Shown: positions 7,870-23,215, numbered from the stretch's first letter. The stretch is DNA of 64,000 nt from Candidatus Omnitrophota bacterium (GCA_003141835.1 PLNR01000006.1:142558-206557), one strand, 5' to 3'. The notes: generated from the letters alone by a model not told the origin. Translations and numbers: made by a program.

Positions 7870-7872
7870 TGG

Positions 7873-8313
7873 TTATTTTTTCCTTAATGTCCTTAGAGCC
7901 CATACGATGAAACGGATCAGCAATAATACCAGGTAAACGATGAGGACTTTTAAAACAAAGAATTTGCCGAAAAATGAGATGAATAATTTATACCAATAAA
8001 CCGCCGTGGAATTAACATAACGCGATCCTTTTAAACCGGATTTAATATGAGCCGTATCCGTAAATTCCTTTATCCGTTTTTCAATAAGTTTTGGCGGCGG
8101 GTTAAGGGCGTCTTCAATGACCTCATTAGAATTATAACCATTGCGGATCTCCGGATATACCTTTATTGTGTATGTTTCCCCGTTAAGGAACTCCAATTTA
8201 TACTTTGGGAATACAACGGGTATTTCGGGGAGGAAGTGCAGGACCGCATATAATACAATGGCTAATCCTATAACTATCAGCCCTTCTTTTGCTATTATTT
8301 TATTGATATTCAT
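7873..8313 (-). CDS. hypothetical membrane protein
   Basis: 146-aa ORF with two hydrophobic segments. AT-rich gene. Confidence 0.35.
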   Translation of the reverse strand: MNINKIIAKEGLIVIGLAIVLYAVLHFLPEIPVVFPKYKLEFLNGETYTIKVYPEIRNGYNSNEVIEDALNPPPKLIEKRIKEFTDTAHIKSGLKGSRYVNSTAVYWYKLFISFFGKFFVLKVLIVYLVLLLIRFIVWALRTLRKK

Positions 8314-8315
8314 TC

Positions 8316-8669
8316 CTATCTATCCACGGGATTATTTACGCTCTCGGTGCTTACGCTGCCTCCATCCGGGCCGTCAGGGTTGTTGACGCTTCCCTCGGCG
8401 GGCGAGTCGATATGCTTTCCCACGGGTTCGGTAGTCGGTTCCGGCGGGAGCGTATTGTCACCTGATTTGCCGATATCCTTATTGTCTTTATTCTCTATTA
8501 CCGGATTATCCGTAGCTTCCGGAGTATCTGCAGTTTCAGGATTATCGACGTTTTCTTGTGTTCCCGGATTATCGTTGGTGGTATCTGAATATTCACCTTC
8601 CGCGTAAGCGCAGCAAGTTGCAAATAACACGATCCCGATCAAGCTGATGAATAATTTTCTAATCTTCAT
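8316..8669 (-). CDS. secreted acidic low-complexity protein with (D/N)NP repeats
   Basis: Signal peptide then NDNPGT, VDNPET, TDNPVI, VNNPDG, VNNPVD. Confidence 0.4.
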   Translation of the reverse strand: MKIRKLFISLIGIVLFATCCAYAEGEYSDTTNDNPGTQENVDNPETADTPEATDNPVIENKDNKDIGKSGDNTLPPEPTTEPVGKHIDSPAEGSVNNPDGPDGGSVSTESVNNPVDR

Positions 8670-8679
8670 TCCCTCTCCT

Positions 8680-9192
8680 TTATGGATGGAATCCTATCTT
8701 CTTCTTTGGCTTTTCTTCCGGCGGCGCCATTAATTCATCAATAAGCTGGTAAATCGTTGTAATATGTCGACCATGTTCTCCAAGTATTTTACCATGTTCT
8801 TTTACCTGTTGCGCAAGTTCTTTATTTTCAGCTAACATTTCTCTTAACCTAACAAATACTCGCATTATTATGATATTTACCCGAATTGCTCTATCACTAT
8901 TTAAAACGCTCGAGAGCATAGCAACCCCTTGCTCTGTAAAAGCATTGAAATTGTATCTTCTGCCGCCCCATCTTGAGGTCGCAAATTGCGACCTCAAGTT
9001 CGTAACTTCTTGTCTTGTAAGAAGAAACATGAAATCAGCTGGAAATCTCTTTAGATTCCTTTTAACTTGTTCATTCGGCCTCTTCGTTGATACTCCGTAC
9101 AGCTGTGCAAGATCTTTATCAAACATCACCTTTTTACCCCTGATAATAAAGATCTTCTGCCGCACAACATCCTGCTCAACCAGATTTGACAT
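8680..9192 (-). CDS. ORF6N-domain DNA-binding protein (antirepressor-related)
   Basis: N-terminal IRGKKVMFDKDLAQLYGVSTKRPNEQVKRNLKRFPADFMF...RWGGRRYNFNAFTEQGVAMLSSVL matches the ORF6N/KilA-N-like family. RBS AAGGAGGG 6 nt upstream. Confidence 0.6.
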   Translation of the reverse strand: MSNLVEQDVVRQKIFIIRGKKVMFDKDLAQLYGVSTKRPNEQVKRNLKRFPADFMFLLTRQEVTNLRSQFATSRWGGRRYNFNAFTEQGVAMLSSVLNSDRAIRVNIIIMRVFVRLREMLAENKELAQQVKEHGKILGEHGRHITTIYQLIDELMAPPEEKPKKKIGFHP

Positions 9193-9199
9193 AAAAAAT

Positions 9200-9250
9200 C
9201 CCTCCTTTAGCTGTATAGACGCTAAAAGGAGGGATTTTCTTTCAACTATT
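9200..9250. repeat. about 50-bp hairpin repeat, copy A (hairpin with TATAGACG loop plus 18-bp tail GATTTTCTTTCAACTATT)
   Basis: The tail 9233-9250 is identical to 17693-17710, and the loop TATAGACGC is shared. On the minus strand it reads as stem-loop plus T-run plus RBS. It overlaps the SIMPL stop codon. Confidence 0.6.
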
Positions 9251-9998
9251 CCGTTATCGCAAAATCCGCATGGACGACCGCGAAGACCTTCTTCTCGAGC
9301 GATGAGGTGTCGTTACTGCCCCAGTCCGAGACCTCGGTCGAATTGACCGGCGTTATCTGGAAGACGCCCATATCCGCCGAGCGTATCCTGCCGACCTTGT
9401 TGCCGGACGCCGAGGCGATCCGTTCGGCCCGTTTCTTCGCGTCCGCGGAGGCCGCGCCGAGCATCTCGAGCTTCAGCTCGGCCAGCTTGGTGTAAAAATA
9501 CTGCGGCGGGTACGAAACGAACCGTATATCCTGCTCGATGAGCCCGGTCGATTCGCGCGACACGGCGGTTATCTTGGCGACGTCAGCCGAGCGCACTTCT
9601 ATCACCTGGCTGAGGTCGTAGGCCTCGATCTCGTTGGTGGCGATGCCCTTCTCGTTCTTCTTGTAGATGACTGTCGTCACCACCTGCGAAACGATCATCT
9701 CGCCCTCGGTTATCCCCTTGGACGCGAGGTAAGCCCTGACCTTGGCCGTGTCCTCTTTTAATTTGGCGAACGCGTCCTTCATCTGTGGGTCCCGCGCCGA
9801 GAACTCGGCCGTCCAGACCGCGTAATCCGATGTTATCCTCTTCTCGGCGGAGCCGGTTACGTTTATCACCTCGGCCGAGGCCTTCTTGAACTTCACCATC
9901 CCGTTGGTCAATATCACCGCGGAACCGATCGCCGCCACTACAAAACATATCCCCAAGATCACTATCTGCGCATTACGCAGGAAACCGTACTTCTCCAT
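9246..9998 (-). CDS. SIMPL-domain (DUF541) periplasmic protein
   Basis: 250 aa, N-terminal TM/signal segment, overall SIMPL-like architecture. Confidence 0.55.
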   Translation of the reverse strand: MEKYGFLRNAQIVILGICFVVAAIGSAVILTNGMVKFKKASAEVINVTGSAEKRITSDYAVWTAEFSARDPQMKDAFAKLKEDTAKVRAYLASKGITEGEMIVSQVVTTVIYKKNEKGIATNEIEAYDLSQVIEVRSADVAKITAVSRESTGLIEQDIRFVSYPPQYFYTKLAELKLEMLGAASADAKKRAERIASASGNKVGRIRSADMGVFQITPVNSTEVSDWGSNDTSSLEKKVFAVVHADFAITE

Positions 9999-10070
9999 CT
10001 CTCTCCCCTTTACATCTTTTTATTCCCGTTTTATCTTTACCGCTTGCCCGGCATCATTGTTTGATCTTCA

Positions 10071-10421
10071 TCACCTCCCCCATGCTATACCGGTGCAAAC
10101 AAAATCACGCAATCTTATATTCTCTTTTACAGGCACAGCCTCAAGTTTAATAGTAAAACCGACATAACGCAAGACCTTTTCCAGCGTCTCCATACTGCTG
10201 AATTCACCATTCTCGATCTTCGATATATGTTGTTGGGTAACACTGATCTTCTTCGCCAGTTGTCCCTGCGTGAGTTTGTGGTCGATGCGGTAGCGGATGA
10301 TGGGTATAACAATCTTTAATTTTTGCTGGCTTATCTCCCACCGCTTCCTGAAATCCGGATTTTTCTTCAGCTCCTCGATATGCTCATTAACACTCATTCC
10401 TAAATGAATATTTCTTTTCAT
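10071..10421 (-). CDS. HTH XRE-family antitoxin (HigA-like)
   Basis: LTQGQLAKKISVTQQHISKIENGE helix-turn-helix. Overlaps the upstream toxin gene by 4 nt. Confidence 0.65.
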   Translation of the reverse strand: MKRNIHLGMSVNEHIEELKKNPDFRKRWEISQQKLKIVIPIIRYRIDHKLTQGQLAKKISVTQQHISKIENGEFSSMETLEKVLRYVGFTIKLEAVPVKENIRLRDFVCTGIAWGR

Positions 10422-10816
10422 ATTCCCTCCCTTTGGCTACTAATAGATATCTTACGTCTTTGTCTGGCCAATGAAATTTCTTTAAGTGGCATTTTTGCGC
10501 TCTTCTTGACAAACGCGTTTGTCATAATGGCTCTGTTCTCCCAAAAGAAATATAATATTCTGATTGTGCCAGCTTCGCTTTGAAATCTTAATTCGAATAT
10601 ATCATCGCCGATATATTTTGAATACGGTTGTTTTAACTCCCTTCCTAATTCTTCGAGCAATCTTTGAATATAAGCAAATTTATCCTGTGTTTTTGATTCA
10701 AACGACTCTATGAATTCCTTTACCGGCATCCTTCCTGAACTTAAACTGTAATAGAAACAGTTAAATCTTCCCACTCTCGCCTCCTTAACTTTACAACCAT
10801 TTAGTTGTATTGTCAA
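10418..10816 (-). CDS. RelE/ParE-superfamily toxin (HigB / Gp49-like). True start possibly the internal Met (MPVKEF...).
   Basis: IFELRFQSEAGTIRILYFFWENRAIMTNAFVKKSAKMPLKEISLARQR matches addiction-module killer proteins. It sits upstream of the XRE antitoxin. Confidence 0.6.
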   Translation of the reverse strand: MTIQLNGCKVKEARVGRFNCFYYSLSSGRMPVKEFIESFESKTQDKFAYIQRLLEELGRELKQPYSKYIGDDIFELRFQSEAGTIRILYFFWENRAIMTNAFVKKSAKMPLKEISLARQRRKISISSQREGI

Positions 10817-10908
10817 TACGTCTTTTTACTGCCCTTATTGTAATAGACGTATAAAGAAGGCATTTTCTTTCAAAATTATTTTTATAAGGGCGTGGATGGA
10901 GGACTGCC

Positions 10909-12120
10909 CTAAACTTGGTATTCTTCGCCGTCAGTTAGGATTTTGACGTTCTGGAATAGTTTGGGATATCTCTCGGCTTCAAAGGTATGGATGGGGATAA
11001 GGACGCGGGGATTAAGGGCCTTGGCGAAGGCCTGGAGGTCCTCGATGATAGCGTGGCCGCTGGTATGTACCGGCTCGATTATCAGACCCTCGCGCTCACA
11101 ATATGCTTTGAATTCATCGGTCAGATATCCCTGCCACATCGAATAAATTATCTTGGCGCCGCGCGCGCCATCGAGTTCCTTCACCGCGATCGGGAAAAAG
11201 GAATTATCGCGCGCCAGCATAAGTATCCTGTTTTTCATGCGGGCGATCTCGAATAGATCGATCTTTCGCTTGTTATAGACAAAAAGCAAATCCCTGTACC
11301 CGGCGCTTTCTAAACATTTGGCATGGTACCCAAGGAATTTTACCCTGATATTCTTCCAATTAAACTGCGGTATATTTTTAGACACCTTTCTCAGCTTATC
11401 CAATATAAACGCGGTATAAAGGTCTATCACGAATACCGAATCCGTCTTCAAGCATGCCCTGTAAGCCGAAACGATCCTGTCGATGTTCTGGGACGAGGCA
11501 AATAGAAAGGTGATCTCCTTCCTCTCTTCCAATATCCGGGCGATCCGCGCCTCGACCTCTTTCTCGTCTTTATACTCCTGCGCGCCCCTGCCGAGCATCG
11601 AGCCCTCCATTATCAGGCAATCAATATCCTTCGGCGGGGCTTCTAACATCATCTTGAATAACGCGCTCTTCCTCCCGTGGCCGCGGAAATCGCCGGAATA
11701 GAATATCCTCTTGCCTTCGCCCTCCACAAGGAAAGTAAGCGCGTCAAACGCGGAATGGTCGACCTGATACGGCGTCACCGTCATGTCCCCAACGACAAAA
11801 GGCTTTTTTGGCTTTACGATGCGCGTGTTTATCTTGCCGGTCTTGTTCGGCGTGAATATATTGGACACCTCTATCAGCTCTTTTGCCCCCTGGCTCATAT
11901 AAACGGGGATATCCGGATGGATGTGGCCCAGCAAGCCATAATGGTCCATGTGGGAATGTGAGATAAGTACGGCATCCGGGAGGATTTTGGGATAGGATGG
12001 CTTTTCGATCTCTTCGTCCAGCGGCTGGCCGAAATCTATCAGGAGCCGCGTTTTATCTGTCTTTAACTCGACGCAGCTACCGCCGATTTCCTGAGTGCCG
12101 CGGTGGATTGTTACTTGCAC
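10909..12120 (-). CDS. MBL-fold metallo-hydrolase (possible nuclease)
   Basis: HSHMDHYG metallo-beta-lactamase motif near the N-terminus, 403 aa. Start overlaps the upstream gene by 1 nt. Confidence 0.65.
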   Translation of the reverse strand: MQVTIHRGTQEIGGSCVELKTDKTRLLIDFGQPLDEEIEKPSYPKILPDAVLISHSHMDHYGLLGHIHPDIPVYMSQGAKELIEVSNIFTPNKTGKINTRIVKPKKPFVVGDMTVTPYQVDHSAFDALTFLVEGEGKRIFYSGDFRGHGRKSALFKMMLEAPPKDIDCLIMEGSMLGRGAQEYKDEKEVEARIARILEERKEITFLFASSQNIDRIVSAYRACLKTDSVFVIDLYTAFILDKLRKVSKNIPQFNWKNIRVKFLGYHAKCLESAGYRDLLFVYNKRKIDLFEIARMKNRILMLARDNSFFPIAVKELDGARGAKIIYSMWQGYLTDEFKAYCEREGLIIEPVHTSGHAIIEDLQAFAKALNPRVLIPIHTFEAERYPKLFQNVKILTDGEEYQV

Positions 12121-12965
12121 TATTTAATCCTGCTAAAATCAATCTCGTTTTTTATATGTAATATTTTTATCTCGGGATGCTTTTTCTTAAGCCCATTTAT
12201 GCTCTGCTCAGCCAAACCTGAATACCCCCCAACGACAACAATTCCCAAAACACCTTCGACAATATCGATCTCCAAACCGTCTGGCAACAGCCCGAGTCCC
12301 CGCTTCTGTAATGCATTCTTTACGTAACACTCCTTATACTGCTGAAAGTTCTTTGTAATACGCTCAATATAGCCGCTAAGTTGCGTAAAGACCTCTTCCT
12401 TCAATTCCAAATTATTTCCCAGCTTAACTTCCAAGACGCAGAACTGATATTTGCCTGCATTATTCCTCTTGAGCGCAAGAAGATCCATCTTAGTAGAGCT
12501 GTCCCGGTCAACAACCTGCCGGTCGATTATTATCAAATCATCTCTGTTAGAATTGTCGGTCAAGATCATTTGCTCGAAAACGATCTCCTCTTGAAACTGA
12601 ACTTCTTTAACCTTTTGTCCCATCAATAATAAATTTCTCGTGCTAAAAAAGGAATGCAATTTCTTATGCCCAACGGTGAATAAATAGTACTCCTTCTCCA
12701 TAGCGTTCTTGAACCGTTTAACCGCAGGGCCCATACCTTCTACAAATTTACGATGGATTCTGATTTCGTACAGATTTTTTGACTTACGGTAGGATATTTT
12801 CCCAAGGCTGTTGCCTTTATAATAAAGATTTAGGTAATCGTCGCGTATCTGCAAACCATACTCAAAACCAGATTGCTTGATCTTATTAATCAAGAAGTCG
12901 AAATCCCTCTTCACGGCCTCGTATGTTTCCTGAGATAGATATCGGCTTATAACTTTATTTTTCAT
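12120..12965 (-). CDS. hypothetical protein with PD-(D/E)XK-like signature (candidate nuclease)
   Basis: 281 aa, AT-rich. MDLLAL...CVLEVK fits a D-x(n)-E-x-K pattern. Unrelated to anything I recognise. Confidence 0.4.
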   Translation of the reverse strand: MKNKVISRYLSQETYEAVKRDFDFLINKIKQSGFEYGLQIRDDYLNLYYKGNSLGKISYRKSKNLYEIRIHRKFVEGMGPAVKRFKNAMEKEYYLFTVGHKKLHSFFSTRNLLLMGQKVKEVQFQEEIVFEQMILTDNSNRDDLIIIDRQVVDRDSSTKMDLLALKRNNAGKYQFCVLEVKLGNNLELKEEVFTQLSGYIERITKNFQQYKECYVKNALQKRGLGLLPDGLEIDIVEGVLGIVVVGGYSGLAEQSINGLKKKHPEIKILHIKNEIDFSRIK

Positions 12966-12992
12966 TTTAGGTTTCCTGCGAACCTTTTATTT

Positions 12993-13053
12993 GGGGACAC
13001 TCTGCAGCCTGTCCCTTTTTGACACGCCCCTATTACCTACTATTACCTATTAC
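12993..13053. repeat. island repeat unit U1 (GGGGACAC...TGTCCCTTTTTGACACGCCCC plus TATTACC tandem)
   Basis: Shares the core GGGGMSKTKTCAAAAAGGGACA (reverse orientation) with U2, U3 and the helicase-gene element. It sits between the Dam-like MTase stop and the 281-aa gene start. Confidence 0.5.
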
Positions 13054-13101
13054 TTCTTCGTGATTTTGCCTTTTTTACGCCCATAAAATAGCAACCTTAG
13101 G

Positions 13102-13989
13102 TTATACAAATAATGTAAAACAATGTTTATTTTTGATTTTGGGTAAGATACAATTCTCGCTGGATATTAATAATTCCTTACCGATGCTAGCTTTATGAAT
13201 AGAATATCTTATTTTAAGATTATTCCGCTGAACGCCTTTGTAAATATTCTTAATAAATGCTATGTTATCATATGAAAGAACCCATTTTAGATCGCTATTT
13301 TCTTTCAAATAATTGCTTAGTCTTTCGTGTTCTTGGGCCTCCATGTAATATTTATATAAATCTCTTCCCTTTTGATAATACGGAGGATCCAAATATATTA
13401 AATAATTTGATTTATCAGGACTTTTTAACGCTAAGTAAGTTTTTAAAAAATCGACTCCATCCTTATTAAATAGCTCAATTTTACTTTTATATTTTGATAT
13501 CAGTTCGATTCTTTTAATTAAATTTATTTTATTAAACCTTGCGTCAATCTTCCATTCGCCATCCTGCTTCATGCCACCTACTGGACCTGACGATAGTATT
13601 CCAGAACGGTTGCAACGATTTAGATAGAAGCTAGCAAACCCAACATCAATATCTGAACCATGTTTTATAAATTCTTTGTCCTTCAATAAATCTCTTTGTA
13701 TTTTCCACTCGCTAATTTTAACAGGTGTAGAAATTACGCGCGCAATAAAACCATCTGTTTGATTTAAAACTGCTTTCCAGAATTTATATATTCGTTCATC
13801 CAAATCGTTAAGTACGATTTTGTCAACGAACCCTTTCGTCAACAAATTTAAAGCTGCGCCAGCTCCTCCAGCAAAAGGTTCAATATACGCTACGTTGACT
13901 AATTCATTGCTTTGGATCACTTTATTTAAATATTTCCACAAAGCTGTTTTTCCGCCGGGGTATCTCAAGGGACTTATATGATTATCCAT
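13102..13989 (-). CDS. DNA adenine methyltransferase, Dam-like (alpha class)
   Basis: EPFAGGAGAALN (motif I) near the N-terminus and YLDPPYY (motif IV, DPPY) in the C-terminal half. AT-rich. Confidence 0.8.
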   Translation of the reverse strand: MDNHISPLRYPGGKTALWKYLNKVIQSNELVNVAYIEPFAGGAGAALNLLTKGFVDKIVLNDLDERIYKFWKAVLNQTDGFIARVISTPVKISEWKIQRDLLKDKEFIKHGSDIDVGFASFYLNRCNRSGILSSGPVGGMKQDGEWKIDARFNKINLIKRIELISKYKSKIELFNKDGVDFLKTYLALKSPDKSNYLIYLDPPYYQKGRDLYKYYMEAQEHERLSNYLKENSDLKWVLSYDNIAFIKNIYKGVQRNNLKIRYSIHKASIGKELLISSENCILPKIKNKHCFTLFV

Positions 13990-15374
13990 TATTCGTTCTT
14001 TTTTAGAACATGTCTCAAATATTCAGATAATTTTTTCCACTTATCTGAAAGCACTGTTCTGTCAGGTATATAACTAGCGTTATGTACGAAAGAGTTCAAA
14101 TCGTCCAATATTGGTTCTTTTCCTTTAAAATCGACATATTTTTTAAGCGCTTTCTTAATTTGCGGATCCATCGCTATATCATTTTCACTAAGCCAAAGTA
14201 GCATTCCCTTAAGTGAGGGCCACGTATCTGGTAAACTTTTCCCGCTTTTTAACTTAGTTTCATCGCGGTTTTTATATTTTTTTAATTCCCCGCTTCTCTC
14301 CATGTAAATATACGTGCCCAATTCTACTAATAGTCTAAAAGTTACCGCATGGGCATTTGGATATGTTTTAGGGTTGAGCCCGTGCAGTTCTCTAAATATA
14401 TCTTTGATTCGCTCATTATTGATTTCACATATAATCGCATCTGGGATAATCGACTTAAACTGAAGTGTTTTAGGTATTTGGTTTTTTATGGCGGATTTTT
14501 TGAAATCTCCAGGATTTGAAAGATAATCTTCTATTGCATCTGCTGTACTTAAATTTCTTGAATTGACTTCTTTATTGGCAATATCCTCAACAATCTGTTT
14601 TAACTTTATATCAGTCTTTTTCTCATTTTCTATAAACTCAATATTTCCATTATCGTTGTAAGTAACTTTTAGATAATCTTTACCTGGCTTGCTTTGAACA
14701 ACTCTATCTAGGGTAGTAAATTCAAATTTTTCTTTTTCGTTTCCGTTTTCTAGACTTAATAATTGATCTTTAATTTTTTTCGAAATAGGTAGTTTGTGTG
14801 CTCTCTGAATGAAGTTGTAACTTACAATTAATTTTTTTATTTTATTAGCTTTGACACCAACGGATAGCGATAAATTATTGATTGTTTCTCCATCTCTAAT
14901 ACGCCGGTAATAAAATATGGCTTGATTTATCGGCAGCCACTTTTTAATAGGTATTTCTGTATGTCTACCTGCAATAATATAATCAGCATCTTTCCTGCTT
15001 GGAGCAAGTACCCCGTTTATTTTTTTAATACTACCTGATTTAGCATTTTTTGCAATTGCCTTAAATCGTTTTTGGTACTTATCAGGTGCGATGCTGGGAT
15101 TCAAAAGAAGCTTGCATGCTGCAAGCCGCCTATTTCCTTCTAATACATATAGTTTTCCTTCTATATCACAAACTATTATAACCTCTGTTGGTAAAAAACC
15201 TCTTTCTGCTATTCTTAACGATAGATCTATAATATTCTCATATTTAATTAGCTCTTCAAGAATGTTTTCTTCTGATAACTCTTCTAAATTAGCAAATCGC
15301 GGGTTTTCAGGGTCTAGTAACAAATTCTCTACATCATACTTATCTATCTTCCAATCCGAATAATTTGTTGGCAT
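13989..15374 (-). CDS. ParB N-terminal (ParB/Srx nuclease-like) domain protein, 461 aa
   Basis: LYVLEGNRRLAACKLLLN matches the ParB GxRR box. Long lysine-rich C-terminal region of unknown function. Its stop overlaps the MTase start (13989). Confidence 0.6.
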   Translation of the reverse strand: MPTNYSDWKIDKYDVENLLLDPENPRFANLEELSEENILEELIKYENIIDLSLRIAERGFLPTEVIIVCDIEGKLYVLEGNRRLAACKLLLNPSIAPDKYQKRFKAIAKNAKSGSIKKINGVLAPSRKDADYIIAGRHTEIPIKKWLPINQAIFYYRRIRDGETINNLSLSVGVKANKIKKLIVSYNFIQRAHKLPISKKIKDQLLSLENGNEKEKFEFTTLDRVVQSKPGKDYLKVTYNDNGNIEFIENEKKTDIKLKQIVEDIANKEVNSRNLSTADAIEDYLSNPGDFKKSAIKNQIPKTLQFKSIIPDAIICEINNERIKDIFRELHGLNPKTYPNAHAVTFRLLVELGTYIYMERSGELKKYKNRDETKLKSGKSLPDTWPSLKGMLLWLSENDIAMDPQIKKALKKYVDFKGKEPILDDLNSFVHNASYIPDRTVLSDKWKKLSEYLRHVLKKNE

Positions 15375-15427
15375 TTAAACCTCCTCAAGTAATAAAATAT
15401 CTTCCGCCCTTATTTGAAATTTAACTA

Positions 15428-15500
15428 GGGGGACGCATACCTTATGACACTGTGCAACCTGTCCCTTTTTGAAGAGTCCTCTATTCTACTTCTATTATTT
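15428..15500. repeat. island repeat unit U2
   Basis: GACACTGTGCAACCTGTCCCTTTTTGAAGAG...CTATTCTACTTCTATTATTT is collinear with U1. Confidence 0.45.
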
Positions 15501-15514
15501 GCTATGGGAACTTC

Positions 15515-15575
15515 GGGGACGTGTCATTTTGGGGCACCCTGCAATCTATTTCTTTTTGACACGTCACTAATATTT
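15515..15575. repeat. island repeat unit U3 (bounded by 9-bp inverted repeat GACGTGTCA / TGACACGTC)
   Basis: GGGGACGTGTCATTTTGGGGCACCCTGCAATCTATTTCTTTTTGACACGTCAC. Confidence 0.45.
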
Positions 15576-15619
15576 TGAATTGATCTGCTCAGAGCTTATC
15601 TAGATTGGAGTATTAGTAA

Positions 15620-16561
15620 TCAAATGCCTTTCAAAAGCTTAGAAAATCCTGCGGTATTAACGAAATAATTGCTCTTATTCTTTTTAAGATATTTATATAT
15701 ATCTTTTTTTGCTTTTGACATCTTATTGTCTGTTGATGCTTCAATTAGTTCGTTAAACATAATTCCATCCAAAAATGCTACATACGAAACATTTTTGTCT
15801 GTGTATTTCAATAAATCCACTATTTCTACAATTGCACCGTATTGCCCTCCACCGCCACCTTTTTTATGTTTATGCTCAACAACATACATATTAGGCCCTT
15901 TTTGAATATAACAATCTGGCATCTTACCTTGTTTTGATTTACTCCATTCAAATTTAATATTACGTTTGTTACAAATGTCTTTAAAATATTTTTTCTCTCC
16001 TTTATCAGGCAATAAATAAAACGAATCCTTTTTGATATCATCGCTTCTTTTATATCTTTTGAAACCTTCCCGCTCAACAAGCATAATAATCTTATTTGCT
16101 CCTGTTGAGCCCCCTCTTTTATGCGAATAATTGTCAGATAGTACTTGTAAAACAATATTAGAATATCCATGAGATGAATACATCGAATGCCTATCCTTAA
16201 TATATTTAATTAACAATTCCCGTAGTAATTTTTTTCTTTCTTGTTCTTTTTCGGCACGCAGTACAGAATATGGCATATCCCATACCATTAAATATTGCGA
16301 GAATGCCGTATAATTCATATGATGTATTTTGAATAATATTGAATCAATCTCCCTGATAATTTCATCATCCTGCTTCTTGGTGAGCTTACCATCCAAAGTA
16401 TGGTACGTTGTTATTAGATCAATTAACCTTTCATTGCTATTAATAATCTTGTTTTTATCTTTTGCGTTTTTCGTTATTACAATAATTTCTTTTTTATTAG
16501 CATCATCAAAAATCTGCTCTCTATTCTTTAACGAGTATTCGAATAAGAGGATGTTGTCCAT
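15620..16561 (-). CDS. hypothetical protein; candidate restriction endonuclease partner of the adjacent MTase
   Basis: 313 aa, AT-rich, no recognisable motifs. Overlaps the upstream NPPY methyltransferase gene by 34 nt. Confidence 0.35.
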   Translation of the reverse strand: MDNILLFEYSLKNREQIFDDANKKEIIVITKNAKDKNKIINSNERLIDLITTYHTLDGKLTKKQDDEIIREIDSILFKIHHMNYTAFSQYLMVWDMPYSVLRAEKEQERKKLLRELLIKYIKDRHSMYSSHGYSNIVLQVLSDNYSHKRGGSTGANKIIMLVEREGFKRYKRSDDIKKDSFYLLPDKGEKKYFKDICNKRNIKFEWSKSKQGKMPDCYIQKGPNMYVVEHKHKKGGGGGQYGAIVEIVDLLKYTDKNVSYVAFLDGIMFNELIEASTDNKMSKAKKDIYKYLKKNKSNYFVNTAGFSKLLKGI

Positions 16562-17613
16562 AATAATTCTTCTCCATAAATATTATTATACGCATTTTCG
16601 AGTATGGCCCTTGCAGTTTCATAATCTAGGCGCCTTCTTCTGCAACCATTTTTCATATTTCCTTTAAAGGGCGACAAAAGCACATCATTCGTTTTGTCTC
16701 TATAATCTGTAAGAATGTTATTGCATTTCTCCAAAAACAATTCTAGCTTATCATGCTTTAATTTATCCAATTTAATTATTGTTATTAGCCTAGAGCTTAT
16801 CTTAATCCCCTTTAAATCATAATCAAGTTCTTCCTTTTTCATGAATTTTATCATGGATTTAGGATTTGTTGTGTCGACCGCTCTTAAGGCAATATTTCCA
16901 CTAGTATCATTAAAAAATATCCTAAGGTATTTTGCGGGCCTTAATCTCAATTTTTCATAATAGTCCAGATTATTTAAATATTTATCATTTTTATACACCT
17001 TGATTTCCGAATATTCTTTTGCTCTGCCATCAAAGCAAAGAACACATACCGGCGTCTCTGTATCATCAAAACAATTTTCTTCTATTATAGTAATCGAATT
17101 TAATCGATATTTATGCTTAAAATTACTATTTATGAAAGTCTCTGGAACAATTGCTACAACGTATTCTTGCGCTTGCAGCATTTTTTCAAGTGCAATTAAA
17201 TATAAATCGCCATATTCAGAACTAATAAAATAATTTTCAGTACTATCATAGATACCTTTTCTTTTAGCACTATAATTACTTAGGTAGGGCGGATTTGTAA
17301 TTATTATGGCATTTTTTCTTGTGGGAATTTTTAATAAACTATCATTCACTGGGAAATTCTTTTTAGAGTCTATGTCCAAACCAAACGCTTTGGTAATTCC
17401 GAAATTATCGGAGAGTTTTAACAAATCGCCGTCTCCAGCATATGGATCATAAATCTCACTACAACCGCTGGATATCACGAATTCTTTAATATGAGTTTTT
17501 AGCCATTTATCTTTTTTAGTAAAATATTGTCCTAATATTTTTTGGTTCATATAATGCCTCTGACAATATTGCGTTTTTTCGTCTCTAACATGGACTTTTA
17601 TCTCGCTTGTCAT
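16528..17613 (-). CDS. N6-adenine (or N4-cytosine) DNA methyltransferase, gamma-class order (motif I then NPPY)
   Basis: DPYAGDGDLL (SAM-binding) followed about 40 residues later by IIITNPPY. Confidence 0.7.
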   Translation of the reverse strand: MTSEIKVHVRDEKTQYCQRHYMNQKILGQYFTKKDKWLKTHIKEFVISSGCSEIYDPYAGDGDLLKLSDNFGITKAFGLDIDSKKNFPVNDSLLKIPTRKNAIIITNPPYLSNYSAKRKGIYDSTENYFISSEYGDLYLIALEKMLQAQEYVVAIVPETFINSNFKHKYRLNSITIIEENCFDDTETPVCVLCFDGRAKEYSEIKVYKNDKYLNNLDYYEKLRLRPAKYLRIFFNDTSGNIALRAVDTTNPKSMIKFMKKEELDYDLKGIKISSRLITIIKLDKLKHDKLELFLEKCNNILTDYRDKTNDVLLSPFKGNMKNGCRRRRLDYETARAILENAYNNIYGEELLWTTSSYSNTR

Positions 17614-17661
17614 GTGTATTTTAACACCTCCCTATTCATGCGTCAATGCAAGGTTTCTTTG

Positions 17662-17710
17662 CTTCCTTACCTATATAGACGCAAGTTAGGAAGATTTTCT
17701 TTCAACTATT
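17662..17710. repeat. about 50-bp hairpin repeat, copy B (partner of 9200-9250)
   Basis: CTTCCTTACCTATATAGACGCAAGTTAGGAAGATTTTCTTTCAACTATT. Identical 18-bp tail and TATAGACGC loop. Confidence 0.6.
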
Positions 17711-17764
17711 TTTTAGAGTTTCCCCTATAACTCCTCACCTTTCATCGGCGTTGCACTCGGGTCC

Positions 17765-17992
17765 CTAATAATTAAAAATATCTTTAATAGCAAAATTATC
17801 TTCCGGCTTTAGCGCGCGAAGGGCATTCAGAATCTTATGTTGGATATTAAGGGTTAATCGCCTTCCCTTGCGCCCCTTTTGCACCATCTTATGCGACAAC
17901 TGCTCAGTGGAAATCTTAACAAGGTCAGAGTTTGAAAAACCTAGCCGCACCATGATCCTGTCAAGCGGCTGGATGCCTAATTCTTCCTTCAT
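17765..17992 (-). CDS. small hypothetical protein (75 aa), basic, possibly DNA-binding
   Basis: Its ATG overlaps the TGA of the upstream NYN gene (ATGA). Flanked by a roughly 30-bp direct repeat. Confidence 0.35.
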   Translation of the reverse strand: MKEELGIQPLDRIMVRLGFSNSDLVKISTEQLSHKMVQKGRKGRRLTLNIQHKILNALRALKPEDNFAIKDIFNY

Positions 17993-18360
17993 ATTTTACT
18001 CCAAAACTCCTCGCATTTCATCGGCGTTGCACGCGCATCCTTCGCATAAAAATACAGCGAGCGGTCGGAGGAGACGACACGCAGGTTGCGGCGCTGGCGC
18101 GGCGGGATCTGGTCGATGTGTTTCTTTATGTAAGAGTCGGCGTTCCGGGCCGCGACGATATGCAGTTTCGCCGTGCTCCTGTTCGGTATATCGAGATATT
18201 CATTCTTGCTGTCGAATACAAGGGTGATGGGGTCGGCGTGGGTCTCCTGGAACTTCTCCAGGATAGCGATCAGGTGCATGGCGCCGGCCAGGGCGTCGTC
18301 ATGATCTATCCCTGAGCCTTCGTGGCGGACCATGTTCCAACCGTCTATAAGTATAGGCAT
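17989..18360 (-). CDS. NYN/PIN-like (YacP-like) domain protein
   Basis: N-terminal ILIDGWNMV and acidic residues are typical of YacP/NYN nucleases. Confidence 0.5.
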   Translation of the reverse strand: MPILIDGWNMVRHEGSGIDHDDALAGAMHLIAILEKFQETHADPITLVFDSKNEYLDIPNRSTAKLHIVAARNADSYIKKHIDQIPPRQRRNLRVVSSDRSLYFYAKDARATPMKCEEFWSKI

Positions 18361-18373
18361 GGCTCCCTAGCAC

Positions 18374-19516
18374 CTAAACCTTTTCGTGGCTAAATTGGCG
18401 CAGATAATCACTGTACATAAACTTGCGATTGCGCTCTTTTCCGGTTATTTCATATAATATGTCTGCCTTAACAAACTTTTCTATCAACTGAAGGATATTC
18501 GCTTTAGAGGATATTCCGGTAATCCGCGAGGCAATCCCTGAATCTACTATAGGGGTTGAATATAGTTTGTTTAACAGTTTTAAGGCTGTTGCGGAATTTC
18601 TGCCCATGCCGGAAACCTTCCTGATGTGCTCCTCCCTTAATTTTGTGATCTTTTGGGCAGTTATCACGGCTTCCTCAGAAACTTCGCGTACGCCTACAAG
18701 AAAATATTTTAGCCAATCTTCTATACCTTTATTAAACCTATATCCGTTTAATTTATCGTAATAATTTGTACGGTGTTTTTTAAAATACTCCGAAATATAC
18801 AAAAGTGGCCGGGACAGCACCTGTTCTTTGTAAAGATAAAAAGTAATCAAGAGTCTCCCCATCCTTCCGTTACCGTCAAGGAACGGATGGATGGTTTCAA
18901 ATTGAGCGTGTATAATGCCGGCTTTTATTAAAGGCGGAAGTTTCGTGGTTTCATCGTGCAAGAACTTTTCCAGATCAGACAAAGATTCATGCATTTGGTG
19001 AGCGGGCGGAGGAACAAAAAAAGCTGTTTCTATAGTAGGGCCTCCTATCCAATTTTGGGAAGTCCTGAATTCCCCCGGATTTCTGTGCTGCCCACGCACT
19101 CCTTTAAGCAAGGCGGAATGCATTTCTCTTATCAAACGCCAGGAGAGAGGAAAGGTCTTTAGCCTTTCTATGCCATGATCCATTGCGGTTATGTAGTTTT
19201 TTATCTCATCGACATCCGAAGGGGAATCCTTATCCTTTAGTTTCGCCTCCGCTTTTATGTAATCGATGAATGTCGCCTGAGTACCTTCTATCTGGCTTGA
19301 TAACGCGGCTTCTTTCGTAACGTACATGTAGATAAAGAAATTAACGTCGGGGACAAGCTGGTCTATGGCATTGAGACTACCTATAGCGCGATCTGCCTTT
19401 GAGAGAAGCATGATTAAATTGTCATCCCAGTTTATGAGATGCTCAGGTGGAAATTTTGCCGGTATAAACGCCTTGTAACCTGTAGGTTGCTGTTGATAAA
19501 AACCTATTTTTCCCAT
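18374..19516 (-). CDS. Fic family protein (probable AMPylase) with C-terminal winged-helix
   Basis: Canonical Fic motif HPFLDGNGRMGR within a 380-aa ORF. Confidence 0.85.
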   Translation of the reverse strand: MGKIGFYQQQPTGYKAFIPAKFPPEHLINWDDNLIMLLSKADRAIGSLNAIDQLVPDVNFFIYMYVTKEAALSSQIEGTQATFIDYIKAEAKLKDKDSPSDVDEIKNYITAMDHGIERLKTFPLSWRLIREMHSALLKGVRGQHRNPGEFRTSQNWIGGPTIETAFFVPPPAHQMHESLSDLEKFLHDETTKLPPLIKAGIIHAQFETIHPFLDGNGRMGRLLITFYLYKEQVLSRPLLYISEYFKKHRTNYYDKLNGYRFNKGIEDWLKYFLVGVREVSEEAVITAQKITKLREEHIRKVSGMGRNSATALKLLNKLYSTPIVDSGIASRITGISSKANILQLIEKFVKADILYEITGKERNRKFMYSDYLRQFSHEKV

Positions 19517-19688
19517 TTCATCCTCCCAGAACTACTGTTTTGGTTAGTTCTGGATAAGTAGTATATCCGATACTTACGCAATATGCAAGTTTTAATTTCA
19601 ATGATTCCAACGTGTTAGAGTAGCTCAATAATTAGTTCTGGTTAATGCCATTATCCAGAACTTGATATTTTCTAAGTTCTGGCTACAG

Positions 19689-22600
19689 TTACCCCCAGCA
19701 GATATCGTAAAAATCGCATTTATTGTTGCCCTGGCCGCATTTGCCGGGTTTCTCGTCGATCTCCGGCAGTTTGGCGAAGTCGAGCTTCCTGATGCGGCGG
19801 CTAACGTCCTTTATGAGCGACTCGAGCTCGGCGACCATATCCTCGGTCAGCTCGACCTTCTTCTTGACGAATTCGCCTTCCTTGAGGTCGTGCTTTATGA
19901 CCGTCTCTTTAGCCGGGTCGAGGAAGACGAGCACCCCCTCCTTTACCTTGCGGCCCTGTGATTCCTTCTTGTCCCTGTCGAAGAGGAGTTTATACGCGAT
20001 GAGCTGGCGCAGGTACCCCTCGAACTCATCACTTGATACCGGTATCTTTTTCGCGAGAGAATTATTGATCCCTTTGACATGTCTATCCGGTTCACCCGTT
20101 TTATAATCTATCACACGAACGGCGGCGGTGCCCGCGGGTTCGGTTTTATCATATTTTCCGGTAAATTTCAGGTCGTCATCGAGCATGACCATCAGGTTTT
20201 TCTCGAGGCCGAGCGGCTTTATCGGCGCGCGTGATTCTTCCTTGAACCAGGCCTTGAACGTCTCGACCTGGCGCAGGCAGGCGGTCTTTATCGCCGCTTC
20301 CGGGGCTTCGTGGCTTAATTCCCTGGTGAACGCCTCCTTGAAGAACGCGAAATCCGGGAATTTGCCGGTCTTCATGAATTTATCATAGGTATTTTCCAGC
20401 GCCTTGTGGGTGCAGTTACCGAAGACGAGCGGCTGCTTCTTGCCCGACGGCAGCATCAGGGCGTTATCATAGAGATATTTGCGCGGGCAATTTATATAAT
20501 TGTTGAGCGATGTGGGGTTGAGCGAGATGCCGGCGACGAGGTCTTTCAATATCTTGTCGGTGCCGATGAACGGGTCTTCTGCGTCGGTTATCTCGAGCGC
20601 GGCTTTGAGCAGGTCCTCTTCTTTATTTGCGGAGGCCTCCCCATCGGCCACGCCCGTAAGATACGAGCTCGGGATCGCGCTCTCGGTCGGGCTGGCGGTG
20701 TAGATGAGGTTCGCCTTGGCGCGCGTCGAGGCGACGTAGAACAGGCGCGTCTCGTCGTAATAATCGAGTTGCTTTAAGATATCCTTGTCGGGCGGGATCT
20801 CCTTCGACTTGTAGACCTCGGGCGGGAGCGGGATCGAGACGCCCTGCGGCCGCTTCGGCCAGCGCTTCTTTTCGAGGCAGAACGGGATGAATACCGTGTG
20901 GAATTCGAGGCCTTTCGAGCCGTGGGCCGTGTAGATGCGCACGCCTTCCTGCGTGGCCGTGACGAGCTCGCCCTTCAGGGACATGCCGTGGGCCTTGCGG
21001 GTCTCGAGCTCATCGATGAATTCCTTGAGCGTGATGCCCGGGCGCGCGATGTCGGATTCCTTGACCATGTTGACGAATGACGTTAGCGCGCGCAGGTCGC
21101 GGATGCGCAGGAGATCATTATCATCATATTTATCCAAGATGAACTTCAAAACCCCTGCATCTTTGATAAATTGCATCAAAATTGCATGCACTGGTCTACT
21201 TTCGGCTTCAAAAAGCAAAGCAGAAATCGAAGCTAAATTTGGGGACGTTTCAAAAAGGGACACTTCACCCACTGAAGTATTAGCAGGGGTGAAATGTAAC
21301 CCTTTTTGAAACGTCCCCAAGCGCATTAGCTCGCTGAACATCGAAATCGTCGGGGCTTCGCCCTTCTTGCGCTGGTCATATTTTTTCACCCGGACTTCGG
21401 CGATGAAGCGCAGGACGTCGCTCATCGGGATGTGCATGTAATCGGCGGTCAAAATGCGGTAGAGATAGGCGTCTTTCTGCTCTATATCGATGTCGGGCGT
21501 GTGCGCGAAATAGAGCACGTCGAGCATCTGGCGGACGCGCTTCTCGCCGGCGATGTCCTCCTTGCCGTCGGTTGCGTACGGGATACCGGCGCGCAGGAAA
21601 GTGTCGACTATTTTGAGGATATCGTCGCGCTGGCGCACGAGGACGGCGACTTCATCAAGCGGGACCTCCTCCTTCTTCGCGATCTCCTTTATGCGGCGCG
21701 CGATAAAGAGCAACTCCTCGGTCTCGGTCGTGAATTCGTCATATTCGATGGTCTTTTTCTTGAAATCTGTCTCCGGCGCGAGTTCTTTGGCGTGGACGCG
21801 CTCTTTAACCGGAAGGTTATTTATTATGCGGCCTGCGAGCGAGATTATCTCTTTTGTCGAGCGGTAGTTCTTTTCGAGCGGGATCTCTTTTAATTTCGGA
21901 AATCTCTTCTTTAGTTCGCGGAAATTCGCTACCGACGCCCCCTGGAACCTAAAAATAGATTGGTCGTCGTCCCCTACGCAGCAAATATTCGTGCCGCCTA
22001 GCTCGAATAATAAGTCCATCTGCGCGCCGTTGGTGTCCTGGAACTCATCAACCATGATGTAGGTGTACTGCTTCTGGAGGGCGGATTTGAGCTCCGGTTC
22101 ATTGCGGATCGCCTCGACCGCGAAAAGTATCATATCATCGTAATCGTAGCGGCCCCGGTCATCGAAAAGTGCCTTATTTTTGCCCGCTTTGTACTCTTCA
22201 TACAGCTTATATACGGTGGCGAGGGCCTTGAGACGTTCTATGTGCTTTTCTTCAATGTAGGCGCCGTCAGGCTCGGTTTTTTCTATTATCTCAGCGAACT
22301 GCGCCGGCGAAACACCTTCGCGCTTAAGCTCGGTTATCCGCTGGCTTATCTCGCGCTCAAAAGCGTACGGCGCGCGGAACGGCCGGATCTTATCGATGCC
22401 GTCAGTATTATCCAAAATATATTCGAGGAGCTTTATCTGCTCGATATCGGTTATCTGGACGCGTTCCTGGATGTATTCGGCCGCCTCTTCGGACTCCAAC
22501 ACGACAGAATTCGCGAAACTGTGGAATGTCGCCGTTTCAATATTGTAAGCGGCGGCTCCAAGGAGTTTCACGAGGCGCTCTTTCATCGCCTTCGCGGCGG

Positions 22601-22775
22601 CATTCGTGTATGTTAGGATGAGGATATTCTCGGGGCGGGCCTTCTTTGCCTTAATTATGTTCGCCGCGCGGACGGAAAGCAGCTCGGTCTTGCCTGTTCC
22701 GGGTCCGGCTAGGACTAAAACGGGGCCATCGAGGGTCTCGGCGGCTAATTTTTGCTTGGTATTCAGATTGATCAT
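19689..22775 (-). CDS. UvrD/PcrA-like SF1 helicase fused to a C-terminal PD-(D/E)XK Cas4/AddB-like nuclease with Cys cluster
   Basis: Walker A LAGPGTGKT and helicase motifs in the N-terminal 650 aa. C-terminal segment VIDYKTGEPDR...QLIAYKLL plus Cys residues (NCPRKY...CGQGNNKCDFYDIC). Start taken at MINLN (ATG 22775). The track ORF extends to 22823. Confidence 0.8.
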   Translation of the reverse strand: MINLNTKQKLAAETLDGPVLVLAGPGTGKTELLSVRAANIIKAKKARPENILILTYTNAAAKAMKERLVKLLGAAAYNIETATFHSFANSVVLESEEAAEYIQERVQITDIEQIKLLEYILDNTDGIDKIRPFRAPYAFEREISQRITELKREGVSPAQFAEIIEKTEPDGAYIEEKHIERLKALATVYKLYEEYKAGKNKALFDDRGRYDYDDMILFAVEAIRNEPELKSALQKQYTYIMVDEFQDTNGAQMDLLFELGGTNICCVGDDDQSIFRFQGASVANFRELKKRFPKLKEIPLEKNYRSTKEIISLAGRIINNLPVKERVHAKELAPETDFKKKTIEYDEFTTETEELLFIARRIKEIAKKEEVPLDEVAVLVRQRDDILKIVDTFLRAGIPYATDGKEDIAGEKRVRQMLDVLYFAHTPDIDIEQKDAYLYRILTADYMHIPMSDVLRFIAEVRVKKYDQRKKGEAPTISMFSELMRLGTFQKGLHFTPANTSVGEVSLFETSPNLASISALLFEAESRPVHAILMQFIKDAGVLKFILDKYDDNDLLRIRDLRALTSFVNMVKESDIARPGITLKEFIDELETRKAHGMSLKGELVTATQEGVRIYTAHGSKGLEFHTVFIPFCLEKKRWPKRPQGVSIPLPPEVYKSKEIPPDKDILKQLDYYDETRLFYVASTRAKANLIYTASPTESAIPSSYLTGVADGEASANKEEDLLKAALEITDAEDPFIGTDKILKDLVAGISLNPTSLNNYINCPRKYLYDNALMLPSGKKQPLVFGNCTHKALENTYDKFMKTGKFPDFAFFKEAFTRELSHEAPEAAIKTACLRQVETFKAWFKEESRAPIKPLGLEKNLMVMLDDDLKFTGKYDKTEPAGTAAVRVIDYKTGEPDRHVKGINNSLAKKIPVSSDEFEGYLRQLIAYKLLFDRDKKESQGRKVKEGVLVFLDPAKETVIKHDLKEGEFVKKKVELTEDMVAELESLIKDVSRRIRKLDFAKLPEIDEKPGKCGQGNNKCDFYDICWG
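21241..21319. mobile_element. MITE-like structured element inside the helicase-nuclease CDS (perfect 19-bp terminal inverted repeats GGGGACGTTTCAAAAAGGG / CCCTTTTTGAAACGTCCCC plus nested hairpin)
   Basis: It is embedded in an AT-rich stretch of about 200 bp (21125-21330) within an otherwise GC-rich gene. The reading frame is maintained. Its core is related to the island repeats U1-U3. Confidence 0.45.
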
Positions 22776-22822
22776 ATTTATGCTATAATTGGATGGTATA
22801 ATTATACCCCAAGGAGGACGCA
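22776..22822. promoter_or_regulatory. divergent promoter region (two TATAAT boxes, RBS AAGGAGGA for the plus-strand gene)
   Basis: TATAAT at 22784-22789 and 22797-22802. AAGGAGGA 5 nt upstream of ATG 22823. Confidence 0.35.
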
Positions 22823-23155
22823 ATGAAAACTGCTATTATTATGTTATCTGTTCTCTCTTTTACCCTTTTCGTGAGCCCGGCAACGGTCAAGGCCGAAGGC
22901 ACCAGCGGCACGCTCGCCGCGCAGGTAGATACGGTCACTGTGGCACAGACCGAGGGCGAGGATTCCACCGTTTCAGTTGTAGATGAATCCGGCGTCACGA
23001 TACTCTTTTATGTGACAGCCGCAACCGTCATCTCCGGCCCGATAGGCGAGCCGATAAGCCTCGGCAATATCAACCAGAACGACCCGGTCGAGATAGAATA
23101 CGATAATCTCGAGGGCGGGGTCGGGCTGGCGAAGTCAATAAAACTAACAGAGTAA
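22823..23155 (+). CDS. small secreted protein, paralog 1 of 3 (possible OB-fold periplasmic protein)
   Basis: Signal peptide. Shares the C-terminal pattern of hydrophobic and Gly positions with 25322-25636 and 25662-26000. Confidence 0.5.
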   Translation: MKTAIIMLSVLSFTLFVSPATVKAEGTSGTLAAQVDTVTVAQTEGEDSTVSVVDESGVTILFYVTAATVISGPIGEPISLGNINQNDPVEIEYDNLEGGVGLAKSIKLTE

Positions 23156-23160
23156 ATATA

Positions 23161-23207: not shown

Positions 23208-23215
23208 AGGAAAAA

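Follow-up and report, generated by a model that had tools for sequence, protein, structure and literature searches.

Between positions 7873 and 22823 of a 64,000-nucleotide stretch of DNA from a Candidatus Omnitrophota bacterium (GCA_003141835.1, PLNR01000006.1:142558-206557; the whole stretch is called the window here, and positions are counted from its first letter), predicted nuclease, methyltransferase and toxin genes lie crowded in AT-rich DNA, which raises the question of whether the region entered the chromosome once, as an island, or is assembled from parts with separate histories. A reading made from the sequence alone had proposed one horizontally acquired defence island of 14.95 kb and left its mobilisation unexplained. 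The Omnitrophota are uncultivated, and to our knowledge almost nothing is known of their phage defence. Our analysis instead supports, with a probability that we put at roughly 0.85, a chromosomal defence hotspot of this Candidatus Omnitrophota lineage, in which strain-specific acquired cargo occupies three slots between conserved host genes.

The composition of the region already departs from that of a single block. Outside it, 1-kb windows have a mean GC of 0.527 (standard deviation 0.020, minimum 0.477), while 7873-22823 as a whole has 0.426 and 12120-17992 has 0.339; the tetranucleotide distance from the rest of the window is 0.55-0.70 in the 12-18 kb section and 0.18-0.27 elsewhere, so that the drop into an AT-rich core is borne out by both measures. 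Four genes in 13102-17613 have a GC of 0.30-0.33 and a GC at third codon positions of 0.26-0.29, against about 0.70 at these positions in the conserved, or backbone, genes. The pattern is a mosaic rather than one trough: host-like values recur inside the region, in the genes for a SIMPL-domain protein (0.58), an NYN protein (0.55), a helicase-nuclease (0.534) and a metallo-beta-lactamase-fold (MBL) protein (0.50), and low values in SoFic (0.42), p281 (0.39), ORF6N (0.39), p146 (0.37) and HigB (0.36). Taken by class, cargo has a GC of 0.30-0.42 and backbone 0.50-0.58.

The open reading frame (ORF) layout was as the sequence-only reading had it, with all genes of the region co-oriented on the minus strand and start/stop overlaps at 12120, 13989, 16528-16561 and 17989-17992. 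Its domain calls were all reproduced with Pfam: ORF6N, Gp49/HigB with a helix-turn-helix (HTH) partner, MBL, a D12 methyltransferase (MTase), an Eco57I-like NPPY MTase, NYN_YacP, Fic_N with Fic, and UvrD with PD-(D/E)XK. Its gene list needed two amendments, a SIMPL/DUF541 gene at 9246-9998 that had been overlooked and the start of HigB, which is probably a GTG near 10774 (118 aa) and not 10816.

To separate backbone from cargo, we compared the region with about ten related Omnitrophota assemblies, found through three anchors: the helicase (genomes), the exact NYN protein (assemblies) and DUF900 (metagenomes). Contigs other than the window carry L numbers below. Relatives of the helicase-nuclease (81-88% aa identity) occur in metagenome-assembled genomes (MAGs) titled Candidatus Omnitrophota or Omnitrophica, two records being labelled Planctomycetia. 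One gene order is kept throughout, namely ArsP, HD/OB, helicase-nuclease, NYN, SIMPL, DUF900, glycosidase and PALP enzyme, and we found it in L001/L014, L002, L003, L015 and L016; L001 and L014 are one contig, in which the order is as in the window and helicase and DUF900 are 13.6 kb apart. Across genomes the backbone proteins share 73-96% identity, and their genes retain host GC. About 5 kb, or a third, of the proposed island is thus backbone (helicase-nuclease, NYN and SIMPL with leaders), and the single island was not borne out; the helicase-Cas4-like fusion, which had been counted among the island genes, is a conserved flank at host GC rather than cargo. The region divides as follows.

19689-22823, minus strand: helicase-nuclease, backbone, right flank of the hotspot
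18361-19688, minus strand: slot S1, between helicase and NYN, holding SoFic
17989-18360, minus strand: NYN, backbone, between S1 and S2
about 10123-17617, minus strand: slot S2, between NYN(-p75) and SIMPL, holding a type II restriction-modification (R-M) pair, PD-Lambda-5, p281 with MBL, and HigBA
9246-10122, minus strand: SIMPL with its leader, backbone, between S2 and S3
about 7849-9178, minus strand: slot S3, between SIMPL and DUF900, holding ORF6N and two small membrane proteins
6706-7869, minus strand: DUF900, backbone, left flank

At the nucleotide level homology breaks at 17618, 10122, 9179 and 7848. What lies between these junctions differs from relative to relative. The S2 slot of each relative holds other genes, with a GC of 0.28-0.37, and a single one of the four S2 modules of the window, the R-M pair (M and R), is shared with any relative (L015; M 85%, R 79% aa identity). 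Assigning 41 cargo proteins of the relatives to families gave HsdM, HsdS and HsdR, DpnII and TdeIII restriction endonucleases, D12 and N6_N4 MTases, DndB/DpdB, TIR, OLD-TOPRIM with AAA_15, AAA_21, RadC, Fic and ParB_N. The modules vary singly between strains, not as one block. Relatives carrying the same genes in the same context with matching composition, which would have spoken against acquisition, were looked for and not found; together with the PADLOC matches described below, the differing AT-rich cargo in the same slot supports the view of a horizontally acquired, defence-rich cluster. Positions 7989-23447 (15.5 kb), all junctions included, are reproduced with 100% identity in an independent Logan assembly (L005), and the region is therefore no assembly chimera.

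Slot S1 is seen both filled and empty. In four strains with about 95% nucleotide identity (L007, L010-12) the helicase stop joins the NYN start directly (TAG-G-GTG; joint sequence ...GGGGGTAGGGTGCC...) with no Fic gene, and the window has 1328 bp there, made up of SoFic and its promoter; no convincing target-site duplication was found at the insertion. The SoFic gene (18374-19516, minus strand) matches the PADLOC model SoFic (PDLC03963) at 2.3e-117 over residues 5-359 of 361, and its product has Fic_N and Fic domains with an intact Fic motif, HPFLDGNGRMGR, at residue 210 (HxFx(D/E)GN(G/K)RxxR). It thus resembles SoFic (PDLC03963) in its full-length hidden Markov model match, its two domains and its HPFxDGNGRxxR motif, and differs in its precise insertion between two backbone genes and in having its own promoter (TTGCAT-17-TATACT, within 19517-19688), which is surrounded by five CCAGAACT / AGTTCTGG repeats. 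These five CCAGAACT repeats look operator-like and perhaps serve autoregulation of SoFic. In some strains (ENA ERZ1426844, L006, L008, L009) a GH3/PA14 glycosidase lies between helicase and NYN, and S1 therefore also accepts metabolic genes; still other genes fill it in further strains; a similar GH3 gene is present in the window itself at 50345-52855.

The NYN gene on the other side of S1 (17989-18360, minus strand; NYN_YacP 2.4e-12) encodes a protein 84-100% identical in all relatives, with neighbours that vary. Beside it lies a 75-aa gene (p75; 17765-17992, minus strand), found in L001 and L006-L013 and absent from L002, L003 and L015. A 53-nt direct repeat (77% identity) at 17712-17764 and 17988-18040 brackets this gene, duplicating the 3' end of NYN, and the arrangement is kept in L001 and L007. 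Such a duplication is the pattern expected of a single-crossover insertion, although we regard it as suggestive only.

Slot S2 is entered through a conserved leader (17618-17764, minus strand) that comprises a copy of a short element, E (17675-17705), and a sigma70-like promoter (17618-17646); homology with L001 and L015 extends to 17618 or 17610. Next comes M (16528-17613, minus strand; GC 0.31), a predicted gamma-class N6-adenine MTase (Pfam Eco57I, 2.4e-6, 28.2 bits against a cut-off of 25.3) with NPPY at residue 107, preceded by the motif I-like DPYAGDGDLL. It is overlapped by 34 nt by R (15620-16561, minus strand; 313 aa), which has no family match. In R, P215-D216...E229-x-K231 is invariant in 24 homologues, and an AlphaFold2 model (mean predicted local confidence, pLDDT, 90) gave weak fold matches (best E 0.02), all of them to PD-(D/E)XK nucleases. 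We read M and R as a type II R-M system in which R is the putative endonuclease. Like known type II systems, it pairs an NPPY gamma-class N6A methylase with an overlapping PD-ExK nuclease gene, and the pair moves between phyla as a unit; it differs in its nuclease family, for which Pfam has no model. The same pair, with the same 34-nt overlap, lies among housekeeping genes of a Saganbacteria contig, between hisB/ruvB and secretin/shikimate genes (R 79%, M 69% aa identity; 76.6% nucleotide identity, stopping exactly at the R stop codon), and its GC is low there too (0.33 against 0.42). We rejected the identification of R as a DpnII endonuclease, a label that came only from the UniRef name of a 79% homologue; R has no PF04556 match (Pfam, E<=0.01). 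An hhalign comparison of R with a 313-aa cargo ORF of L015 gave no similarity, but is uninformative, as that ORF is itself not established as a DpnII homologue.

The second module consists of two adjacent genes with a 1-nt overlap at 13989 that match the PADLOC models of PD-Lambda-5. Gene A (13989-15374, minus strand) matches PD-Lambda-5_A at 7.2e-55, and 20 more A models; its N-terminus is ParB-N-like (NCBIfam ParB, weak, E 0.0023), and PD-Lambda-5_A also matches prophage PHROGs. Gene B (13102-13989, minus strand; PADLOC 2.3e-106) has a full-length Pfam MethyltransfD12 match (4.8e-21) with DPPY at residue 201. PADLOC also gave MTase_II matches in the region. PD-Lambda-5 was first described from a prophage, and its discoverers report broad protection and a resemblance to a compacted R-M and abortive infection (Abi) system (Vassallo et al. 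2022, bioRxiv 10.1101/2022.05.12.491691). The two co-oriented genes and the D12 MTase with DPPY agree with that description (bioRxiv 10.1101/2022.05.12.491691). The present copy differs in being chromosomal, in a distant phylum and predicted from its genes, where the original was on an E. coli prophage, and in that the weak ParB-N signal is confined to the N-terminal part of A.

The third module, p281 and MBL, is the most novel element of the locus. The p281 gene (12120-12965, minus strand) had no match in Pfam, NCBIfam or PDB sequences (E<=1) and none among the PADLOC models. Its predicted product has a two-domain PD-(D/E)XK fold with a C-terminal active site, D161...E179-V-K181, that is invariant in homologues, and the AlphaFold2 model (pLDDT 90.5) has EndoMS (5gkj_B) as its best Foldseek match, with E 8.8e-5 and probability 0.97, but with a template modelling score of just 0.25-0.29; the model thus points to a NucS/EndoMS-like nuclease. 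The MBL gene (10909-12120, minus strand) matches Pfam Lactamase_B_2 (2e-17) and RMMBL (6e-5), has an HSHMDH motif and weak RNase J, CPSF and Cas14 matches, and finds its best PDB match in 2az4 (uncharacterised EF2904; 5e-17), and we take it for a predicted beta-CASP-type nuclease. Compared with NucS/EndoMS, p281 has the two-domain NucS-like PD-(D/E)XK fold and differs in having no mismatch-repair context; compared with beta-CASP nucleases (RNase J, CPSF73, Cas14 of type VII CRISPR), MBL has the HxHxDH motif and the RMMBL tail and differs in having no CRISPR array.

Both proteins fall below every curated family cut-off; their two genes make up a conserved operon that is found in defence neighbourhoods. 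The p281 family (685 word-index matches, 496 clusters at 50% identity) is spread over at least five phyla. A Margulisiibacteriota contig, which belongs to the metagenome series that also yielded L015, L016 and L020, encodes a p281 homologue with 74% aa identity. The pair is intact in Thermodesulfovibrionales, Margulisiibacteriota, another metagenome lineage and a second Omnitrophota relative, in the last of which the MBL partner is just 26% identical, and it has a decayed MBL in a deltaproteobacterial symbiont. Elsewhere its neighbours are BREX, type ISP R-M, Dcm with HATPase_c_3 (MORC-like) and HNH, and toxin-antitoxin (TA) pairs, and in other phyla it also lies near an integrase/Prim-Pol element. 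By guilt of association the operon may be a new two-gene anti-phage defence system, a suggestion that we offer tentatively. In two other phyla a DUF6508 gene lies directly before, and overlaps, the p281 homologue (L032 5570-6004, L036 5591-6004); DUF6508 may represent a third member of the NucS-like/MBL module, one that the window lacks. The M+R pair and p281+MBL thus have homologues with 74-79% aa identity in other phyla, which points to transfer of cargo across phyla.

The last S2 module, HigBA (10071-10816, minus strand), has the toxin gene upstream (HigB, Pfam Gp49 2e-23; HigA, HTH_3 4.8e-11) and a 4-nt overlap at 10418-10421. On its 5' side are an E element at 10843-10873 and then TTGACA-17-TAAAGT at 10788-10816. 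The backbone homology reaches 10122, so that the last 17 codons of the HigA ORF (10071-10122) lie in the conserved sequence upstream of SIMPL; relatives without HigBA keep this sequence, and the present C-terminus of HigA was therefore made by the cargo/backbone junction. SIMPL itself (9246-9998; Pfam SIMPL 4.6e-24) is 92-96% identical in L014-L016. Beyond it, S3 holds an ORF6N/KilA-N-type protein (8680-9192, minus strand; Pfam ORF6N 1.6e-34, PADLOC PDC-S05 4.6e-58, PHROG anti-repressor 6e-27) and two small genes.

8316-8669, minus strand: p117, a 117-aa secreted low-complexity protein
7873-8313, minus strand: p146, a 146-aa membrane protein

The S3 genes of the window are missing from L015 and L016, and L016 keeps an E element and the start of a decayed uracil-DNA-glycosylase (UDG)-like ORF. 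In relatives, the place taken in the window by ORF6N, p117 and p146, between SIMPL and DUF900, is occupied by this frameshifted ORF (...VLILGSFPGP...; L014 about 9580-10000, L015 9650-9990, L016 9840-10010). The DUF900 protein of the left flank, an alpha/beta hydrolase (Pfam DUF900 2.4e-25), is 73-80% identical in L014-L016 and holds the same order relative to SIMPL; a lookup of its exact sequence gave no match.

Two kinds of short element recur at the module junctions. E has the form TTGAAAGAAAAT-N12-CGTCTAT, its consensus also being written AATAGTTGAAAGAAAAT-N12-CGTCTAT, and its three copies in the window (0.04 expected) are all in the island region, each 5' of a module.

17675-17705, minus strand: E, in the S2 entry leader
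10843-10873, minus strand: E, 5' of HigBA
9215-9245, minus strand: E, directly after the SIMPL stop

In relatives E precedes other cargo, stands at the empty S3 site of L016 and precedes an unrelated secreted-protein gene in L003. Its geometry is promoter-like, with -35/-10-like boxes followed by a ribosome-binding site and ATG, and on these grounds (the geometry, the L016 copy and the L003 copy) we rejected it as an attachment or recombination site. The spacing TGAAAG-N17-CGTCTA resembles what we take to be the consensus of extracytoplasmic function (ECF) sigma promoters. E as a target of the window's own ECF sigma factor (56585-57127) was likewise rejected, no E-like motif being present upstream of that operon or elsewhere in the window outside the three copies.

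The second element, F, is a nested palindrome, GGGGACGTGTCA-AAAA-GGGACA...TGTCCC-CAAG-TGACACGTCCCC, with three copies in S2.

15519-15572, minus strand: F, between R-M and PD-Lambda-5
15432-15485, minus strand: F, between R-M and PD-Lambda-5
12982-13035, minus strand: F, between PD-Lambda-5 and p281

Slot S2 thus reads E, M+R, F, F, PD-Lambda-5, F, p281+MBL, E, HigBA, with the elements in direct orientation. Other copies of F lie at cargo junctions in L015, L016, L001 and L019, and the helicase gene has one in frame in the window as well as in L001, L002 and L003. Across the 307 kb searched, the long variant was confined to two settings, the intergenic regions of S2 cargo (five genomes) and the neighbouring helicase gene. 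The homology of M+R with L015 stops at 15554, inside the first F copy.

The helicase-nuclease that carries one of these copies has Pfam UvrD-helicase (1e-64), UvrD_C (2e-31) and PDDEXK_1 (2e-23) domains, the last being the Cas4-like nuclease fusion, and is 81-88% identical in L001-L004. At 21238-21327 (minus strand) an F-type palindrome with a perfect 21-nt inverted repeat, matched by the R1 model, lies in frame in a loop of UvrD_C and is translated LGTFQKG...VSLFETSP. The element has the same position and a varying length in relatives (L001 4208-4279, L003 11536-11619, L002 about 11420-11493).

We rejected F as an attC site, as its sequence has no R''/R' boxes (RYYYAAC/GTTRRRY), and as a structured RNA, since covariation analysis gave no support for a conserved structure and Rfam gave just a spurious miRNA match on the palindrome. 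A third idea, that F is specific to the hotspot, is weakened by a related 29-nt GC-rich palindrome, GGGGTGTCCCCCAATGGGACGTCCCC, which resembles the 3' half of F and occurs elsewhere in the window, at the 3' ends of genes and, in one case, in frame within a response-regulator ORF, where it reads ...HEMGCPPMGRPPVLIL...; its core, GGGACGTCCCC, occurs 9 times against 1.2 expected.

1417-1445: 29-nt element
23162-23209: 29-nt element
23422-23450: 29-nt element
26467-26495: 29-nt element

F looks like the long form of a lineage-wide family similar to repetitive extragenic palindromic (REP) sequences. Short palindromic repeats of this sort are familiar from REP/REPIN and from the Rickettsia palindromic elements, with which the present family shares short GC-rich nested palindromes, locations at gene 3' ends and in-frame copies in ORFs (helicase, response regulator), and from which it differs in that no RAYT/transposase was seen here and that the long variant was seen only in the hotspot.

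Together, these observations narrow the mobilisation left unexplained by the sequence-only reading. The absence of a visible integrase or transposase was confirmed by a Pfam profile search of the island ORFs; the largest intergenic gap in the island is at most 245 nt, and there is therefore no space for a decayed integrase or transposase gene. No tRNA was found in the window and no repeats were found flanking the region. The junctions lie at start and stop codons, next to E and F, with conserved leaders kept upstream of differing cargo. These features, sharp gene-boundary junctions free of mobile-element scars, are consistent with replacement driven by recombination. Each module is an autonomous unit of one or two genes, in which methylases would mark self DNA and nucleases or toxins would attack either incoming DNA that lacks the mark or the infected cell itself, with SoFic as a Fic AMPylase-type single-gene defence and PD-Lambda-5 as an R-M/Abi-like system. 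Exchange without an element-encoded recombinase would proceed by homologous recombination of incoming DNA through the conserved flanking genes, the short E and F elements probably supplying homology too, and the outcome would be the replacement of whole modules with start/stop-codon precision.

Several points weigh against the hotspot. The defence role of the cargo in this organism is predicted from its genes, and recombination is argued from missing scars and junction positions; the MBL gene is close to the host in GC (0.50); PDC-S05/ORF6N is only a candidate defence family, and HigBA, p117, p146 and SIMPL need not be defensive; the GH3 glycosidase in S1 of a related strain means that the hotspot is not exclusive to defence genes; and the comparison genomes are all MAGs or metagenome contigs. 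Of the other explanations, we think it unlikely, though worth some weight, that this is an integron-like or dif-module-like cassette array in which E and F are sites for a recombinase encoded elsewhere. An E or F in direct orientation at each S2 junction, co-oriented genes, the confinement of long F to S2 and the adjacent helicase, and M+R homology that ends within F are all what such an array would show, but the annotated ORFs of the island and its flanks contain no intI or other recombinase domain, E and F lack attC boxes at their ends, F shows no covariation, the promoter geometry of E and its copies at the empty L016 site and before the unrelated L003 gene fit poorly, and the shorter relative of F at ordinary gene 3' ends places F in a genome-wide REP-like family. 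Cassette exchange mediated by F and E is in our view a weaker reading than that of p281 and MBL as a new defence system.

It is very improbable that the region is a decayed prophage, integrative and conjugative element or other integrative island, inserted once as a block and since deprived of its integrase. The matches of ORF6N to phage anti-repressors and of PD-Lambda-5_A to prophage PHROGs, the prophage origin of PD-Lambda-5 and the integrase and Prim-Pol near p281+MBL in other phyla lean that way; set against them, the cargo is divided into three slots by syntenic backbone genes at host GC, the modules differ one by one between strains, no tRNA, integrase remnant, flanking direct repeat, phage structural gene or conjugation gene was found, and no DNA match appeared in phage or plasmid collections or IMG/VR. 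Least credible of all is that the genes were inherited vertically, their AT-richness reflecting functional or expression constraint, or that the MAG is mis-assembled or chimeric. Defence genes are often AT-rich in many genomes, and M+R is shared with L015 at 79-85% identity, similar to the backbone genes; however, relatives have just a single one of the four S2 modules in common with the window, other phyla have homologues at 74-79%, near-identical strains lack SoFic, the independent assembly is identical and five other assemblies have AT-rich blocks in the same slot.

The hotspot is a locus of a known kind, flanked by core genes and ordinary apart from its sharp boundaries and uncharacterised nuclease pair. 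In Pseudomonas aeruginosa, 'core defense hotspots' have been described in which variable defence sets lie between conserved chromosomal marker genes (PMC10250203). Those hotspots share strain-variable content, conserved flanks and an interior without dedicated mobile-element genes with the present one, which differs in its three adjacent slots split by single backbone genes, its very strong GC contrast (0.31 against 0.53) and the E and F elements at its junctions (PMC10250203). Integron cassette arrays and CALIN likewise hold co-oriented, promoter-proximal, compositionally foreign modules with short palindromic repeats and TA and defence cargo; the present locus differs from them in having no IntI and no attC boxes, in its genome-wide REP-like repeats and in its interleaved backbone genes.

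What is new lies in the detail: three adjacent slots, the unannotated NucS-like/beta-CASP pair and in-frame palindromic elements. Current views are not overturned, and we regard the locus as a solid example rather than a surprise, one that shows a familiar hotspot architecture, with R-M, Abi and TA cargo exchanged across phyla, in an unstudied phylum. The exact junctions can be used as anchors to mine the pan-immune repertoire of this lineage from metagenomes, the widespread nuclease pair offers a candidate new defence system that can be put to the test, and copies of the GC-rich palindromic family are tolerated in frame within a helicase gene and a response-regulator gene.

Outside the three slots, the segment 5' of the helicase (22824-26053) also varies and makes up a fourth slot, which has host GC and no defence genes. 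It holds ORFs for a 110-aa secreted protein and a 209-aa product, together with a response regulator/histidine kinase pair; these genes are missing at this place in L001 and L003 and present in ERZ1426844. The remainder of the window carries ordinary chromosomal genes of an anaerobe, among them a bifurcating-type FeFe hydrogenase, GH3 and GH130 glycosidases, a P-type ATPase, radical-SAM enzymes, YchF and an ECF sigma factor. The last of these belongs to a pair at 55712-57127, in which the ECF-type sigma gene (Sigma70_r2 and r4_2; 56585-57127) is followed by a gene for a DUF2275 membrane protein, likely its anti-sigma factor.

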